From positions 1 through 64,000 of the IMG/VR virus record IMGVR_UViG_3300021255_004427: a stretch of DNA of 64,000 nucleotides; one strand, given 5' to 3'. Origin of the DNA: a virus (lineage: Duplodnaviria > Caudoviricetes). Of this stretch, positions 25,438-51,440 are shown piece after piece (position 1 is the first letter of the stretch; every line of letters begins with the position of its first letter). The notes beneath the pieces are model-generated. The model worked only from the letters and a program-made list of their open reading frames with translations, made no database searches and was not told the origin of the DNA. Made by a program: the position numbers and the translations under genes.

Positions 25438-25782
25438 ATGGATAATAATACTACAATTGCAGAGCAGGCGCAGGATCTTAGCGAAGTTGTTATCGTAAAA
25501 GAAGCCGGCATGGATGCGCCATATAAGCTTGAAGATGCCAGCATTGAATTTGACGTAGCAATTTCTGATGCGGGCGATCTGATTTTCAAGGGCGGCCAGC
25601 TTACTACCAGCTACTTCATTCAGAATACCGAGCTTGATCACCTTGAAACCTGGAGATACTTTATTGAGGGTGTAAAAATCAAGAACATGCATGTTTCTAC
25701 CAAGCTCGATAAGATTACTTACGATTTTAGCGCAAATGGCTTTGTAGACTATACAGTTAGTGCGGAGGAAGACAATGGCTGA
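25438..25782 (+). CDS. hypothetical protein, first gene of the late cluster
   Basis: GGAGG RBS. Confidence 0.75.
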   Translation: MDNNTTIAEQAQDLSEVVIVKEAGMDAPYKLEDASIEFDVAISDAGDLIFKGGQLTTSYFIQNTELDHLETWRYFIEGVKIKNMHVSTKLDKITYDFSANGFVDYTVSAEEDNG

Positions 25783-26506
25783 GGAAAAAGAAACAGATAT
25801 AAAAGCGCCCACAGCTGCAGAAGTTGAACTTGAGGAAAATCAGCGCAACTATGACAGGATGATGGCCCGGCTTAAAACAAATGTCTGGGGACATAGCCAG
25901 AAGGGGCTGCTCGCACTCAAGGCAAGTATGCAGCAGCTCTCACTTAAGACGGGAATGTATGCCCGTATCCCAATTTATTGTAAAGGCGAAGGCTGTCCCT
26001 ACAATGAATCCTGCCAGCTATATTTTGATGGGCTTGCACCGGTAAATGAGCCTTGCCCTCAGGAAGTTGCTTTGATTGGCCGCAAAGTCGCCCAGTATAC
26101 TGACGAATTCGATCTGGACAAAGATGATGCCTCCCCCACCGATAAAGCGCTTGTAGAAGAAATTATCCTTATGGAAGTTTCCATGGAAAGATGTAAGGCG
26201 CTTATGTCACAGGAGATAAACCCGATCCAGAACGTTGCAATCGGACTTAGTGAAGAAGGCGAGCCGATTTATCAGCCGCAGGTATCCAAAGTTGTGGAAG
26301 CCTATGAACGTTTTTCCAAAAAACGTAATGCGGACTACAATCTCTTAATGGCTACTCGCAAGGACAAGAAGAAAGACATTGAAGAAGAAAAGCAGGCTGA
26401 CATCTATTCGATTATTGAGGAAGCTCAGAATACTGAGGGGTTCTTTGATATGGATAAGCGGCCGGATGTTCAGGATGCTGAATTTACGGAAAGCGGGGAA
26501 AAATAA
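25775..26506 (+). CDS. Cys-rich protein, possible terminase small subunit
   Basis: C-x4-CPY-x3-C...CP.E cluster, helical C-terminus, upstream of terL; function is inference. Confidence 0.5.
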   Translation: MAEEKETDIKAPTAAEVELEENQRNYDRMMARLKTNVWGHSQKGLLALKASMQQLSLKTGMYARIPIYCKGEGCPYNESCQLYFDGLAPVNEPCPQEVALIGRKVAQYTDEFDLDKDDASPTDKALVEEIILMEVSMERCKALMSQEINPIQNVAIGLSEEGEPIYQPQVSKVVEAYERFSKKRNADYNLLMATRKDKKKDIEEEKQADIYSIIEEAQNTEGFFDMDKRPDVQDAEFTESGEK

Positions 26507-26826
26507 TGAGTGCCAGTACGGAAGCCATAAATAAAATTGGCACTGCTGCCAGTGGCGTTTTTAACTTCATGAAAGAGCCTTGGTCAAAAGGGATAGAATA
26601 TGCTACTGGCAAAGGGCCAAAAACATGGAAGGGTTTAGCCAAGGAAGCCTTTGGTGGTGCTGAAGGAGATTTAACTGCATTCAAGGTTGGCGACGAACGT
26701 TATAACGGTGCTAAGATTGCCGGCGCCTTAGGCGGGCTTGGTATTGGTTATCGTTTTGCCTCTGGCGGTGGTGCCTATAGAGATAAGAATGGCAACACAG
26801 ATATTGCGGGTATACCCTTTATTTAA
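26506..26826 (+). CDS. Gly-rich small protein, putative virion/ejection protein
   Basis: ORF coupled to previous gene; GxxxG hydrophobic segment. Confidence 0.65.
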   Translation: MSASTEAINKIGTAASGVFNFMKEPWSKGIEYATGKGPKTWKGLAKEAFGGAEGDLTAFKVGDERYNGAKIAGALGGLGIGYRFASGGGAYRDKNGNTDIAGIPFI

Positions 26827-26844
26827 AACTCGGAGGTTATGTGA

Positions 26845-27216
26845 ATGGGTATTACTGGCAGTATTTTTAAGAAAGCCCTGGGCGGCGTTAAAGCGTTTGA
26901 TAACGCCATGACCAAGGCGGCGGACAAGGTGTTGCAGGCTCCCGGAAAAATCATTAGATACGATGAGTCTGGATTTCCTATGGAACTCAATAAAAAAGGT
27001 AAGGCTGTTCTTATTGGGGCAACAGCTGTGGGTTCGGCAGCCAGTGCATACAATGAGAATGAGCGCAAGCACTTAGGAACTATCGATAGTAGAATAGTCT
27101 CCCCTACTCCAGATTATTCTGTTTACCGTAACGGCTCTACCCTGTCCGCTCCGGGCGGTGCAGACGGTTCCCTTGTATTTGCTTTGGATAAAACTAAGAA
27201 TGGGGGCTTCTTGTAA
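26845..27216 (+). CDS. putative virion/ejection protein
   Basis: GGAGGT RBS; Ala/Gly hydrophobic segment. Confidence 0.65.
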   Translation: MGITGSIFKKALGGVKAFDNAMTKAADKVLQAPGKIIRYDESGFPMELNKKGKAVLIGATAVGSAASAYNENERKHLGTIDSRIVSPTPDYSVYRNGSTLSAPGGADGSLVFALDKTKNGGFL

Positions 27217-27218
27217 TC

Positions 27219-27671
27219 ATGGGGATTCCATCTAAGATCGTAAACAAGATGTTTAAAAACAACAAAGGCGAATGGAGCAAAATGGCTATGGTCGGAACTG
27301 GCGCAAATTTGTTATTCGGCGCTTCAGAATATGCCGATAAACGTGCTGAGGGCGAAGGAGTAATCTCTGCTGGCCTTTCCGCGGCCGGAGATATTGCGCT
27401 GGGTCTTCTTACTCCTATGCCGTTATATATTGGCGCAATGATGGCCCCTGCACTTGCCGAAGGGGCCGTGGATGCATACCATGCTTTAGACCAGTACGGA
27501 CGCCAGTTAAAATCACAGAGGCGAAACCTGCCTTTTCAGAATGCTACCTTTGTAGATTCACAACAGACATATACGATGCGTCAGGCCGGCATGAACCTTG
27601 CACGGCAGGGACAAATGGCCGCGCAACAGACTTCAATGGGTAATGAGGCATCCGCCTTTGCTCGTTATTAA
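27219..27671 (+). CDS. putative virion/ejection membrane-associated protein
   Basis: hydrophobic helices, Gln-rich C-terminus. Confidence 0.65.
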   Translation: MGIPSKIVNKMFKNNKGEWSKMAMVGTGANLLFGASEYADKRAEGEGVISAGLSAAGDIALGLLTPMPLYIGAMMAPALAEGAVDAYHALDQYGRQLKSQRRNLPFQNATFVDSQQTYTMRQAGMNLARQGQMAAQQTSMGNEASAFARY

Positions 27672-27691
27672 AAACTCGGAGGTGAGACGAT

Positions 27692-28639
27692 TTGGCAAAA
27701 AATAAAGAAAAAGATCATTTTCTGACTCAGGCTTATACTGCATCTCAAGAAGTGGTTGGTAAAAGTACAGTAGAGAACCCAAGGAAGGCTCGCGAGAATT
27801 ATGCAGCTATTCGAGAAAAATTATTCTCGAACTTCAATCAGGCCGAAAAAGATGGCGCAGACATGGGGTTTCTCGAAGATTATATTGATGAATCCGTAGG
27901 CGGGGCGAGTAAAAAAGCCAGAGAAAGGTTTAATGTGTTTCGCGAAGAGATAGATGAGCGAATCAGGGATGTAGATGCCAAAAATGCACGACTAAGAAGC
28001 CGTTCAACGATGTTCGGTAAAATGGCTGATGTCAAAGATAATGCTCGGGTAATCGAAATAGCGAAGCAGCAATTTGGACAGAAAAAATGGGACAGGGTGA
28101 CACGGAATGCCGACGAAGCTAAGTTGTCCCTAAAAACCAGAATGGCCAATAGACTCGGTGGTATCCAAGCAACATTGATGGATAGGATACAGAGTATGCG
28201 TTCCGGTATAGAAACGCATACAAACTATGATGCCCACAGCGAACGTGTCTCAGCTATGAAAACAGCAGCGAATGAAAAAATCCATGCAGACATTGCGAGA
28301 GAACAGTTGCGGAGCAAGGCTGATAAGTATTCAGCTATTGCAGATGCGCGTGAAAAGGCTGTCAGAATGGCCGCTGAAGGAGATGCCAGGTCAACAATAA
28401 ATCTTCATAAGGGCGATCTTAGTATTACTAAACAGGCGTATAAAGATGGCAATATTACTTCGGCTCGCCAAAGCAATGTAGCTAAAGCTGGTGGTAAAGG
28501 CTTGGGCTGGAAAGGTAAGGCCGGTGCTGTAGCAGGTCTACTTGCTCTTGGCGGTATTATCGGTAATCAGTTCGCGGGCGGCCATAAATCTAATGCTGAG
28601 CTCTACAACCCCAACCCGCAGCCACAGTATTACAGCTAA
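27692..28639 (+). CDS. helical protein with C-terminal Gly-rich hydrophobic segment
   Basis: GGAGGTG RBS + TTG. Confidence 0.7.
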   Translation: MAKNKEKDHFLTQAYTASQEVVGKSTVENPRKARENYAAIREKLFSNFNQAEKDGADMGFLEDYIDESVGGASKKARERFNVFREEIDERIRDVDAKNARLRSRSTMFGKMADVKDNARVIEIAKQQFGQKKWDRVTRNADEAKLSLKTRMANRLGGIQATLMDRIQSMRSGIETHTNYDAHSERVSAMKTAANEKIHADIAREQLRSKADKYSAIADAREKAVRMAAEGDARSTINLHKGDLSITKQAYKDGNITSARQSNVAKAGGKGLGWKGKAGAVAGLLALGGIIGNQFAGGHKSNAELYNPNPQPQYYS

Positions 28640-28767
28640 GTAAGATGTTTCACGCGTTTGCCAATGTTGCACGCTCTGGAATCCGCATAATTATTAGCTT
28701 GATATATTTTATGTATTGCATTTTTCAAGTTTTTCATGGTAAAATAAAAGCCATGGAGGTGAGGATT

Positions 28768-29361
28768 GTGAACCAGCATCAACACTCACATGGCGGTGCC
28801 CGTCCCGGTGCAGGCAGGCCAAAAAAGAAAGCGCGTGACTTACAGAAAACACATAGCATCCGGGCTACAGATAAAGACTGGAAGGAAATTCAATTGGCGG
28901 CCAGAACCATCAAGACGTGTTCTTCTATAGACAGACGCCCACGCATTTTTATGCTCACTGACGATGAACAAGATAAGGTAAACCAATTCTTTCTAAATGG
29001 ACTTATCGAGGCTTGGCAAAATGCGCGTTGGGGTGAACCAGATACTACACCTCCACCCCAACCACCTCTACTACAGGAGCAAAAAGAAATAGAGATAACA
29101 AAGCCTCGCAATTTTAGCGAGGAAGAAGCAGTATCTATATTTCTTGAATACTATCGGACTAACCCTATTGAATCCGTGTCTCTCGTTCAAAGCAAACTTG
29201 AGCAAGAACAGCGAATTCGCGAAGCTAGAGAACGGCGGCAGCGGCAATCAGCAACAATGGATAAGTTCGATGAGAGGATGCAGAATGCTATGGACTCTAT
29301 CGATGATATAAATGAACGCATAGCAAAGATGTTACAATTTCCTGGAGCCGGTACGAAATAA
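28768..29361 (+). CDS. putative DNA-binding protein (HGGARPGAGRPKK basic motif, RHH-like)
   Basis: GGAGGTG RBS + GTG 28768; own TTGCAT-18-TAAAAT promoter at 28716-28745. Confidence 0.65.
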   Translation: MNQHQHSHGGARPGAGRPKKKARDLQKTHSIRATDKDWKEIQLAARTIKTCSSIDRRPRIFMLTDDEQDKVNQFFLNGLIEAWQNARWGEPDTTPPPQPPLLQEQKEIEITKPRNFSEEEAVSIFLEYYRTNPIESVSLVQSKLEQEQRIREARERRQRQSATMDKFDERMQNAMDSIDDINERIAKMLQFPGAGTK

Positions 29362-29482
29362 TATCGTATCGGCTCTTTTTATGTCTGACAATAGGGCAAA
29401 TAAATACACATTGCCGGTAATACGGGGAATGAGTTCCTTAATAGCCATTCCCCTTTTCGTAGTGCTATGGAGGAAAACTTCT

Positions 29483-29680
29483 TTGGATGAACGTAAGAAA
29501 ATCAAGCTGCAACAGGCGGCAGCGATTTTAAAAAATCCGGTACTCTGGGCTAAAGCTTGTGTAAAAACAGTAGATAATGCCACAAAACAAGTAGTACCTT
29601 GGGAAGCCAGATGGTATCAGAAAGAGATGCTTCTGGATAACTCTATAAAAAAAGTTGCTCGATGTGGGCGACGAACGGGT
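29483..29680 (+). CDS. terL: terminase large subunit, exon 1
   Basis: GGAGG + TTG start; WYQ Q-motif and ARCGRRTG, which joins exon 2 KT to give Walker A GRRTGKT. Confidence 0.88.
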
Positions 29681-29842
29681 GGCACTCTGCCCGTCCCCGA
29701 CAAATTGCTGGAATACCTGGCGGCACATCATAAAAAACGTCAGGGGAATCAGCAGCGAACCTTATATTGTATAAGGACGTTCAGAGACTAGACGCGGGGT
29801 CTGATTGTCTTGTAATCAGTTGAATAAAAAGGGGAATGCAGG

Positions 29843-30313
29843 ATGATTTTTGAAACTAAACGCAATGTAGTTAACAACGTATTTTCCGTAGAAATCTCTT
29901 TCGCCGGCTACGGCACGGATGAGATGGACGAAAAGCACGAACAGGCTCTCTTTAATGACCTGGGCAATCCGGTTATCAATCTGGGCGCAATCGTGTTCGA
30001 AGGCCGCTTTGATGTTGATGGGGACAAGCGTGTTGTTCCCGCAGAAGGCGAAAACGGCGACGTTGTTAAGTTTATCCAGAATGTAAAACGCTATGAACTT
30101 GCTCCGGGCTTTGTTGTAAGCTTCAGTGCCGATGCCGGCGATGTTGCAAAGTCTGAGCTTGGCGAAAAACTCAACACGGCTCGTCTCGTAGCTGAAGCAA
30201 AGGCTCTGCTCTTCCAGCAGAAGGTACACGAAGCTATCAAGGCTGTCGTTGAGGAGCTGAAAGCGCAGCGCACCCGTTTTGAAACGGAGACTGTTGCCAC
30301 TCTCACTGTCTAA
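29843..30313 (+). CDS. intron-borne hypothetical protein A (no homing endonuclease motif)
   Basis: 156 aa, own RBS, high-expression codon bias, LGNPVIN motif. Confidence 0.85.
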   Translation: MIFETKRNVVNNVFSVEISFAGYGTDEMDEKHEQALFNDLGNPVINLGAIVFEGRFDVDGDKRVVPAEGENGDVVKFIQNVKRYELAPGFVVSFSADAGDVAKSELGEKLNTARLVAEAKALLFQQKVHEAIKAVVEELKAQRTRFETETVATLTV

Positions 30314-30330
30314 TAGGGGGTGCTTGCGAT

Positions 30331-30693
30331 ATGAAGCTGAAATACGATTATGTCGTGAAGAAGCGGAAGATTACCATAGAGCTCGAGACTGTGGATTTCA
30401 CAAACAAGGAAATTCGTGCTCTCGAAATGCTCGGTGAACCGGTAATCAACTTTCAAAAAACATATCCGGGCGGATTTACCATTGCTTTGTCCAAGAAACT
30501 GCGCAGCGAGTTTAAGGCCCGCATTCGCATTGACGGGACAAATGATGTAGAGGCAGCCAACGAGGCTGGCCAGAAATTCCTCGCGGATATCAAGGAGCTT
30601 CTCGAGCTTGAAATGGAAAAACTGATGGATTCTTACGAAGATCAGGTTTTCCCGCCGATGCACGGCAAGCTCGACATTTCGGAATATAAATAA
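30331..30693 (+). CDS. intron-borne hypothetical protein B (probable paralog of A)
   Basis: 120 aa, GGGGGTG RBS, LGEPVIN motif. Confidence 0.85.
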   Translation: MKLKYDYVVKKRKITIELETVDFTNKEIRALEMLGEPVINFQKTYPGGFTIALSKKLRSEFKARIRIDGTNDVEAANEAGQKFLADIKELLELEMEKLMDSYEDQVFPPMHGKLDISEYK

Positions 30694-30757
30694 TCCGTAA
30701 ATATTAAATTCAAGACAATCGGAAAGGGATAGTCCTGGCCGGAGTTTTTCCGGCTTG

Positions 30758-32347
30758 AAGACCGAAACCATGTGCATAGATTCATTGCACAAGGCTTGTA
30801 CTAATCGCTCGTTTGTATGCCTGTACGCAGCACCGTATGAGGTTCAGATACGAGCGATTTTTAACCGTTTAAACGAACTTATTTCTCTTTCCCCTGCTCT
30901 GCAGGCTATGGTAGTTTCCAATACAAAAACACCATTTGAAATTAAGTTCAATAACGGTTCTGCAATACGTGGCCAGACCACAGGCGCATCGTCAGGCGGC
31001 GGCGCCGTAGGTTTTCGTGGTCAGCGTGCGGATGCCCTTTACCTCGACGAGAGCGATTATATGAGCAACGCCGACTTTGACTCAATCCTCGCCATCGCAG
31101 CCGAGCGTGAAGGGATCAAAGTTTTTCTCTCCTCCACTCCTACTGGCGCGCGCAAGCGTTTCTGGCAGGCGTGCACAGATCCAAGTATGCATTTTAAGGA
31201 ATTCCACTATCCATCTACATGTAACCCCCAGTGGGGTCCAAAGATGGAAGAAGAATTCCGCTCCCAGTTATCTGAGCAAGGTTATATCCATGAAGTTATG
31301 GCTGACTTTGGTTCTCAGGAAACTGGTGTATTTGATAAGGATAAAATCGACGCGGCAATGAAGTTTATGCGGTACGCATATTCCCCTCTCACCTACTCTC
31401 AAAAAATGAAAGTAGACGAAAATGGATGGAATGTGGAAATGTATATTCCTCCTGAGAATATGACGATAGGCGTATACAAACCAACTAAGCTGCGCACTTT
31501 TGGAATTGACTGGGATAAATATGGCGCTTCCTCCTCTATCATTATTCTTGATTACGTGCCTCGCTTCGGCCGATTCATGGTAGTGAGAAGAATCGAAGTT
31601 CCAAAAGCTGAATACAGCTTCGATAAGGCTGTAAACATGATTATTGAATTAAATAGGATTTATAATCCAGCATTTATTTATGCGGATAGAGGATCAGGCG
31701 AATACCAACTAGAGATGCTGCATAAATACGGGGATCAACATCCTGAGTCTGGCCTTAAATTAAAAGTTAAGGGATTCCAGTTCTCGCAAAAGATTCCGGT
31801 TATTGATCCCGTTACACATGTTACCGATCAAAAACCAATGAAGCCATTTATGGTGAACCAGTTGAGCATGTGTATTGAGCGCAATCAACTTATCATGTCT
31901 CCATTTGACGAGACGCTGCATAAGCAGTTGGTCGACTACGAAGTTGTTCGCGTCGGTGCTAACGGCAATCCGGTATACACAAGTGTAAACGAACACTTTG
32001 TGGATGCTCTGGGTTTAGCGTTCTTAGCATTCGCGCTTGAGATGCCAAATGTTGCTAAGACAATTGAAGATGTGGACTTTACAGCTCACATGGTTAACGG
32101 TGAGTCTCCGTTTGCCAAGAGAGACAATGCTCCGACAGGCAAGAACTGGCGGGGCGCATCTAACCCATGGAGCAATGCAAGTCTAATGAATGGCACTGTC
32201 TCCTATAAAGACGCTCAGGATAAGAGCGATGGGGATCAGCCAAAATTCTTCCGCGCACCACTTGCTGGTACGGCTGCCAGAAGAAAGAGTAATTGGGGAT
32301 CCAGAAGAAGCTCAGGTTTTGGCTTTTGTGGAAGATCAATGTTCTGA
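30758..32347 (+). CDS. terL: terminase large subunit, exon 2 (spliced product about 595 aa)
   Basis: KTETMC, RGQRADALYLDE Walker B, SSTPTG, nuclease GIDWD and HFVDAL. Confidence 0.92.
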   Translation, partial: KTETMCIDSLHKACTNRSFVCLYAAPYEVQIRAIFNRLNELISLSPALQAMVVSNTKTPFEIKFNNGSAIRGQTTGASSGGGAVGFRGQRADALYLDESDYMSNADFDSILAIAAEREGIKVFLSSTPTGARKRFWQACTDPSMHFKEFHYPSTCNPQWGPKMEEEFRSQLSEQGYIHEVMADFGSQETGVFDKDKIDAAMKFMRYAYSPLTYSQKMKVDENGWNVEMYIPPENMTIGVYKPTKLRTFGIDWDKYGASSSIIILDYVPRFGRFMVVRRIEVPKAEYSFDKAVNMIIELNRIYNPAFIYADRGSGEYQLEMLHKYGDQHPESGLKLKVKGFQFSQKIPVIDPVTHVTDQKPMKPFMVNQLSMCIERNQLIMSPFDETLHKQLVDYEVVRVGANGNPVYTSVNEHFVDALGLAFLAFALEMPNVAKTIEDVDFTAHMVNGESPFAKRDNAPTGKNWRGASNPWSNASLMNGTVSYKDAQDKSDGDQPKFFRAPLAGTAARRKSNWGSRRSSGFGFCGRSMF

Positions 32348-51061: not shown

Positions 51062-51180
51062 ATGGCAAATGCAAATAGCTCCACTTACACGAACACCTAC
51101 ACCACTTTTTCGGGCTGCGATATCGTATGCTCCTTCGGTTCTCAGATTATTGGCGAACTGCAAGGTATTAGTTATTCGGT
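51062..51180 (+). CDS. tail tube protein, exon 1
   Basis: GAGGT RBS; MANANSSTYTNTYTTFSGCDIVCSFGSQIIGELQGISYSV. Confidence 0.85.
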
Positions 51181-51440
51181 GAAGAGTTGCCGATATTAGT
51201 CGATTTACAGATAAGGCTAATAAAGCAGTGGGGAAAAATCCTGGAAGGCTAAGTCAAAAGATAAGCTAATCAGAGGTGAAGGCGAAAGCCAGCCGCAACG
51301 CATAGGTTTTGAAATAATAAACCCACGAGGCCCCACCTGTCTCTGTATTAAGTCGTAAGACAAGATAGAAAAGATATGCTGAACATCATAGGAAACTATG
51401 AGAACTGGAGGATAAAAAGCCTTCAGGATAACAAAAATTG
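51181..51440 (+). ncRNA. group I intron (260 nt, ORF-less) in the tail tube gene
   Basis: P1 UCGGU/GCCGA with U.G; P10 GAGUU/AACUC; P7 A(C)GCAUA/UAUGCU; ends in G; removal gives SYSV-TREKAPVYTMG in frame. Confidence 0.88.

Follow-up and report, generated by a model that had tools for sequence, protein, structure and literature searches.

The window analysed here is a 64-kb stretch of DNA that forms the start of a 224-kb jumbo-phage record in IMG/VR, and near-identical DNA is present in animal gut and faecal metagenomes. The region around the gene for the terminase large subunit (terL) is part of a late structural and packaging block, with homologues of Bacillus phage 0305phi8-36 gp112-gp115 upstream, two of which, gp113 and gp114, have virion-protein annotations, and with portal, protease and major capsid genes downstream. 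Among cultured phages, Moorella phage MTATph1 has the nearest TerL (45% identity), and the Bacillus jumbo phages WH1 and 0305phi8-36 come next. In all three of these outgroups gp115/gp116-like genes are followed directly by terL. By sequence, the window genes at 25760-28639 match gp112, gp113 (C-terminus) and gp115 of 0305phi8-36, as well as MTATph1 CDS0247, 0248 and 0252; in one relative (L050; related loci are cited by such numbers) the gp115-like part forms the C-terminal end of a protein of 1097 aa. Between a 315-aa gene whose product ends in ELYN and terL lies a 238-aa ORF of no known family (28645-29361). Its position is empty in L004 and L012 and holds unrelated ORFs in L059 (196 aa) and L070 (177 aa), and thus looks like a variable slot. 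A strong terminator-like hairpin (29344-29376; 13 pairs, then TTTTT) sits directly 3' of this ORF and ~100 nt 5' of the likely terL start, so that terL exon 1 either has its own promoter or needs read-through.

In the window terL is divided into two exons by a group I intron that holds two genes, orfA and orfB (Table 1). The intron boundaries given in the initial annotation, 29681-30757, proved exact: exon 1 ends in ..CGA ACG GGT, with its last T at 29680, and exon 2 opens with the codon AAG at 30758, the intron splitting the Walker A motif between its Gly and Lys codons. Joined, the exons read VARCGRRTG-KTETMCID, identical to the uninterrupted TerL of L004 and L012 and in agreement with the join RCGRRTG-KTETMC proposed in that annotation. 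The predicted spliced product carries CGRRTGKTE, a Walker A motif of the form GxxxxGK[ST], and exon 2 by itself matches PHROG 2 (terminase large subunit, E 6.8e-24) and Pfam Terminase_6N. The TTG at 29483 is preceded by GGAGG (29469-29473) at a distance of 9 nt, and the resulting exon 1 agrees in length and sequence with intact TerL N-termini (66 aa to the junction in L004, 68 aa in L012); in-frame ATGs farther upstream, for example at 29381, are possible alternative starts. The exon 1 frame continues for 37 codons into the intron core, up to a stop at 29789-29791, and translation of exon 1 could thus disturb folding of the intron. All 15 carriers have GGT as the codon immediately 5' of the intron; non-carriers have GGA, GGC, GGG or GGT there. 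In public sequencing runs no splice joints were found, and the only RNA match was a single 258-nt metatranscriptome contig on orfB.

Table 1 Features of the interrupted terL locus (positions in the window)
Feature	Position	Strand	Remarks
terL exon 1	29483..29680	+	66 codons if the start is TTG 29483; ends ..VARCGRRTG
Group I intron	29681..30757	+	1077 nt; ends in G; cargo in 0.9-kb P8 loop
P1	29675..29694	+	exon ACGGGT (29675-29680) / internal guide GCCCGT (29689-29694); U.G at 5' splice site
Catalytic core, 5' part	29695..29799	+	RF00028 alignment; P3, P4, P5, P6, R element
P3	29695-29699 with 29795-29799	+	
P4	29706-29711 with 29749-29754	+	
R element/P7 5' strand	29786-29790	+	GACTA
P8 5' arm	29800..29812	+	TCTGATTGTCTTG; pairs with 30711-30723
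orfA	29843..30313	+	156 aa; acidic alpha/beta, long C-terminal helix; paralogue of orfB
orfB	30331..30693	+	120 aa; founding member of family; constant component of cassette
P8 3' arm	30711..30723	+	CAAGACAATCGGA; pairs with 29800-29812
P7 3' strand, S element	30730-30734	+	TAGTC
P9 hairpin	30737-30743 with 30749-30755	+	
Terminal G	30757	+	
terL exon 2	30758..32347	+	529 codons and stop; starts KTETMC..; first codons AAG ACC GAA

The complete group I core reported initially (P1 with its U.G pair, the P, Q, R and S elements, P9 and the terminal G) was borne out: P3, P4, P5, P6 and the R element by alignment to the Rfam model RF00028, several helices by covariation, and P1, P7, P8, P9 and the terminal G by inspection of the sequence. 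The model matches 29695-29799 (model positions 49-158) with 30.6 bits (E 1.4e-5), which is under the gathering threshold of 50 bits because the cargo in P8 interrupts the model; the 5' halves of the intron in relatives reach 38-43 bits (L030 38, L013 43). RNAalifold run on 13 intron 5' halves recovered P1, P4, P5 and P6, with double-sided changes in 10 of 21 pairs. The exon and guide strands of P1 co-vary (ACGGGU/GCCCGU in the window, ACAGGU/GCCUGU in L070 and AUAGGU/GCCUAU in L040; also in L033 and L094), as does P7 in L030 (GACUG/CAGUC, against GACUA/UAGUC in the window). The P8 arms, described from the start as lying ~0.9 kb apart around the two ORFs, differ in sequence in almost every lineage, and their duplex is significant against shuffled sequences in 10 of the 11 lineages (z -2.6 to -6.1). 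In the window's clade the intron is without P2 and without P7.1/P7.2. The insertion occupies the same site, at the same phosphodiester bond, in 12 distinct lineages, down to ~50% TerL identity, and ends in G in all 11 lineages examined. An intein is not what the window insert resembles, as the exon 1 frame stops within it and separate ORFs lie inside. Taken together, the low score lowers the formal Rfam call and leaves the structural case, and on these alignments we regard the group I intron as real. The length of the P9 loop varies among samples at 30746, where TTA or TTTA is inserted in two public runs, consistent with an unconstrained loop.

Other introns occur nearby and in relatives, in which terL has up to four. 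Further terL introns were found in L003, L007, L014, L026, L030, L032, L033 and L041, after exon 2 residues ~92-100, 254 and 315. Three additional RF00028 matches of 33-46 bits are present in L033 (L033:5783-7162), and one extra terL intron of L041 holds a LAGLIDADG gene. Some contigs of one public DNA run diverge from the window at 31024 and 31145, which points to a co-occurring variant whose exon 2 contains an insertion, like that of L003. The window also has a second group I intron at 51171-51402, which matches RF00028 over the full model length (22.1 bits, E 1.9e-4).

The two ORFs within the intron are both present as claimed, each with a Shine-Dalgarno sequence of its own and with a shared LG(N/E)PVIN motif (LGNPVIN at residues 40-46 of orfA, LGEPVIN at residues 34-40 of orfB), and each falls in a conserved family. 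A search with an orfB profile against 1.84 billion proteins gave ~79 clusters at 50% identity, nearly all of ~118-125 aa. The profiles of orfA and orfB align with each other in hhalign (E 1.3e-3, 104 columns), the orfB profile matches orfA (E 4e-4), and the predicted models (pLDDT 84 and 86) have a common strand-strand-helix-strands-long-helix order. In a distant relative, L043, a single protein is matched by both profiles. orfA and orfB are thus distant paralogues, that is, duplicates, of a new family. Only M1, E27, G35, P37 and F67 are conserved in at least 90% of 67 orfB relatives, a pattern that looks structural rather than catalytic.

We then considered what these proteins might be. Searches of Pfam, PHROGs, NCBIfam and PADLOC gave no family for orfA or orfB, the homing-endonuclease families LAGLIDADG, GIY-YIG, HNH, His-Cys box, PD-(D/E)xK and EDxHD included, in keeping with the earlier observation that the cargo lacks GIY-YIG, HNH and LAGLIDADG motifs, and a Pfam search of the 67 orfB relatives gave no homing-endonuclease match. 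The structure search that had been proposed as a check returned no significant fold match (Foldseek E at least 0.04, VIA Z at most 5.2); no nuclease is among the Foldseek and VIA matches listed for the two models, an absence that does not exclude a nuclease fold. An Atlas fold search returned only the orfA/orfB family itself, the ESM Atlas feature search gave no usable match, a profile search of PDB sequences gave nothing significant, and a phage collection searched with both proteins gave no match. Neither BLASTP of orfA and orfB against the genes upstream of terL in 0305phi8-36, MTATph1 and WH1 nor profile comparison with those of 0305phi8-36 and MTATph1 revealed similarity; by BLASTP, those genes correspond to window genes farther upstream. 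The papers searched contain no description of the gene pair or of the cargo intron, and in metagenomic records of the phage group examined here terL, orfA and orfB are mis-called or unnamed. The LG(E/N)P motif was also considered as a LAGLIDADG motif, and this was rejected: the order of secondary structure differs, the residue after the G is variable in orfA, and no LAGLIDADG structure is among the fold matches. Nor did a check for a terminase small subunit (TerS) find a Pfam or PHROG TerS family or a fold match, a place upstream of terL being the one feature that fits. The prediction of an orfA-orfB complex (score 0.00) speaks neither for nor against an association.

Codon usage adds a further angle. 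The capsid-like codon bias noted in the initial annotation holds only in part. Compared with the major capsid gene, log RSCU correlates at 0.73 for orfA and 0.53 for orfB; RNA polymerase genes have the same bias, however, and it is thus a core-gene bias rather than one specific to the capsid. Overall, codon usage of the pair is nearer to that of capsid and other core genes than to that of the neighbouring genes, and its GC3 (0.51 for orfA, 0.57 for orfB) is above that of the flanking genes. From the models, orfA and orfB would be small alpha/beta proteins of non-enzymatic appearance, and a nuclease role is disfavoured. Our best guess, held with low confidence, is that they may be accessory late proteins that bind something at the packaging or head-assembly stage, a suggestion drawn only from their position, from codon usage and from a conservation pattern that does not look catalytic.

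We sought to place this arrangement among related phages. A TerL-based scan of IMG/VR, combined with contigs encoding orfA/orfB relatives, provided 57 classifiable distinct loci. Seventeen have exon 1, the intron 5' half, orfA and orfB (A-B), the intron 3' half and exon 2, in that order (State I), and one further State I locus (L094, with a 656-nt intron) has orfB only. The cassette is free-standing directly upstream of an intact terL (State II) at eight loci, and two others of this kind have orfB only. In another 17, terL is intact and the cassette is not nearby (State 0), and the remaining 12 have an intein in the terL P-loop. The nested intron-cargo arrangement is conserved in at least 11 lineages. 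The intron is always accompanied by orfB and usually by orfA too: a cargo-less copy at the terL site was seen in none of 15 distinct site versions and in none of the 57 loci. The cargo is intact in each carrier, with no degenerate copies of the cassette seen. Searches of the whole records of five State 0 or intein genomes found neither orfA nor orfB, and these genomes include two with estimated completeness of 100% and 96%; as a positive control, the same search found one copy in five of five carrier genomes. The initial annotation had proposed locating the ORFs in intron-less relatives, and there they lie directly upstream of an intact terL, or the genome lacks them. Each of the 12 inteins keeps its frame open, begins with Cys and ends in HN; together they occupy two positions, RR-TG and GK-T, one codon to either side of the intron site. 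An intein is also present in the TerL P-loop of Bacillus phage vB_BceM_WH1 (L036; gp116, 974 aa). L039 has a free-standing A-B cassette and an intein together.

The four forms of the terL 5' end are interleaved in the TerL tree. There, L059 (State II) is sister to L070 (State I), L040 (State I) groups with L058 and L104 (State II) and L064 (State 0), and L012 (State II) falls among L013, L072 and L105 (State I). A tree of concatenated A+B tracks the TerL clades and not the form, and so do the exon 1 sequences, on which ground we rejected the idea that free-standing carriers had acquired exon 1 from a foreign source. Two readings fit this interleaving: repeated conversions within clades, or a lasting polymorphism of populations that recombine, in which gene conversion keeps A-B alike. 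By these comparisons, the four forms replace each other among close relatives, with cassette and intron behaving as one evolutionary unit.

L059 is informative as to how a free-standing cassette may arise. Upstream of its orfA are a decayed R element, a P7.1 hairpin and a P8 5' arm, and downstream of orfB are a P8 3' arm and the hairpin GCAGAAATGAC, which State I introns of the larger clade around L059 also have in their 3' halves. P1-P6 and the S element are gone. Its ribosome-binding site and exon 1, homologous to those of its sister L070, are fused to exon 2, and terL is intact; the P-loop site, AGAACAGGT-AAAAC, is the same as the joined exons of the intron-bearing L070 (on the exon 1 side). 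These vestiges, found by eye and alignment only (an Rfam scan of five free-standing loci gave no matches), surround the cassette and show that the intron decayed there, while the cargo stayed and terL was re-joined. Inverted repeats of 20-33 bp bracket the State II cassettes of L004, L058 and L104 (z -5.7 to -8.8); their sequences are unrelated, and the L059 cassette is also flanked by an inverted repeat. This suggests that a P8-like stem may be useful by itself, for example in RNA processing or stability.

Our combined findings favour, with a probability of roughly 0.7, a persisting group I intron in the TerL P-loop whose P8 loop holds a two-gene accessory cassette of orfA and orfB. In this reading the intron would persist at the terL site by both vertical and lateral inheritance. 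A late transcript would span exon 1, intron and exon 2, and ribosomes, loaded on either the precursor or the excised intron, would start orfA and orfB at their Shine-Dalgarno sites. The P8 arms would pair across the cassette, closing the P3-P8 domain, P1 (ACGGGU/GCCCGU, with its U.G pair) would present the 5' splice site, and guanosine-initiated splicing would finish at G30757, restoring ..GRRTG-KTE.. for production of TerL. The initial annotation went further and suggested that essential cargo locks the intron in place. In that form the idea is not supported: the cassette is missing from the two near-complete genomes and L059 has lost the intron and kept the cargo, and so the cargo is neither universally essential nor a lock on the intron. 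The single point that fits a lock is the lack of any cargo-less intron among the 15 distinct versions. On the distribution of forms, the cargo is best described as an accessory cassette that travels with the intron and can outlive it.

A tentative alternative, which we think possible and clearly less probable than an accessory cassette, is that orfB and its family, together with the duplicate orfA, form an unrecognised class of intron-associated protein, acting either as a homing or drive factor or as a splicing cofactor. If true, this would explain both why the intron is never found without cargo and why a P8-like stem outlasts the ribozyme. The two roles can be weighed separately. In the first, orfA and orfB, or orfB alone, would be a new homing or drive module, an endonuclease or its recruiter, directed against intron-less terL P-loops, and would in this way spread both the intron and itself. 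Such a role would suit a cassette that either occupies an intron at the site or stands free no more than ~300 bp away, that is patchy among close relatives and missing from complete sister genomes, and whose target codons are the same few that inteins hit. We nonetheless find it unlikely, given the lack of a nuclease family or fold match, the single charged residue conserved across the orfB family, the acidic character of orfA, the lack of degenerate copies, a codon usage like that of well-expressed core genes and an A+B tree congruent with that of terL. Moreover, because the site in the free-standing carrier L059 is identical to the joined exons of L070, L059 would cut itself.

In the second role, orfA and orfB would be splicing cofactors, either maturase-like or RNA chaperones, needed by an intron whose P8 helix must close over 0.9 kb. 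This intron has never been observed without orfB, as such a role would predict, and RNA-binding folds of the beta-alpha-beta-beta-beta-alpha type are among the weak fold neighbours, namely HPF/RaiA (Z 4.2-4.5, rmsd 2.2-2.3 over ~60 residues) and dsRBD, all with scores in the noise range. However, in ten free-standing loci an intact cassette lies next to a Walker A site that has no intron, the Z scores are no higher than background and orfA is acidic overall, which makes a cofactor role less probable still than a homing module. Finally, terL might be a gene in pieces, its 5' fragment and 529-aa fragment being separate polypeptides and the intron-like sequence a relic, as the lack of spliced reads in public runs (with their one RNA contig, on orfB) and a possible TTG start for exon 2 at 30755 would allow, but a split inside the GxxxxGKT loop, compensatory changes that maintain the core, P1 and P8 over deep divergence, the invariant GGT of the 15 intron carriers and the intact terL of L059, where the core has decayed, make this very improbable.

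The usual description of a phage group I intron is that of a ribozyme accompanied by a homing endonuclease. The introns of T4 td, nrdB and nrdD (sunY) carry I-TevI, I-TevII and I-TevIII. They resemble the window element in being IA-type phage group I introns in an essential gene, with an ORF that has its own ribosome-binding site and is looped from a peripheral helix. In contrast to them, the cargo here consists of two paralogous genes of no detectable known endonuclease family, is conserved and intact in all carriers, and is also found free-standing beside the same gene. In the collaborative homing of F-CphI and psbA, a free-standing endonuclease is paired with an ORF-less intron, and Aeromonas phage Aeh1 has genes-in-pieces associated with mobE. 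The so-called fractured genes are a related phenomenon (PMC2677866). In all of these a small gene lies beside or inside an interrupted target and is patchy among relatives; unlike orfA and orfB, that gene is a demonstrated or recognisable nuclease.

Fungal mitochondria have another non-endonuclease gene in a group I intron loop, rps3, which lies in the mL2449 intron of rnl and is inherited with it (PMC5626475, PMC5529405). It encodes an essential ribosomal protein of known function in an organelle, whereas orfA and orfB are viral and dispensable at the level of the clade. In large phages terL is a frequent host of introns, as here, and group I introns have been described in terL of Twort-like/Kayvirus, rV5-like and Jug phages (PMC5618024, PMC12880540). 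Those introns are ORF-less or have HNH, LAGLIDADG or similar genes, and none has been described with the orfA-orfB pair. Inteins of the TerL P-loop, such as that of WH1 gp116, have invaded the same codons (RR^TG^K^T) in sister phages; their splicing takes place in the protein, and their reading frame is open and continuous with that of terL, whereas the window element is out of frame, has stops and has an RNA core. Introns in terL, and the P-loop as a hot spot for inteins, were thus known already (PMC12880540, PMC5618024). What appears to be new is the orfA/orfB gene family, its strict tie to one intron, and the series of intron-borne, free-standing and absent forms.

These phages thus have an intron that has retained a different kind of cargo across deep divergence, at TerL P-loop codons for which one intron and two inteins compete. 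Their sister phages form a natural series, with no element, with intron and cargo, and with cargo alone beside vestiges of the intron. This offers a concrete system in which to ask whether introns act as vehicles for accessory genes, what holds such cargo in place, and how an intron goes without losing its cargo.
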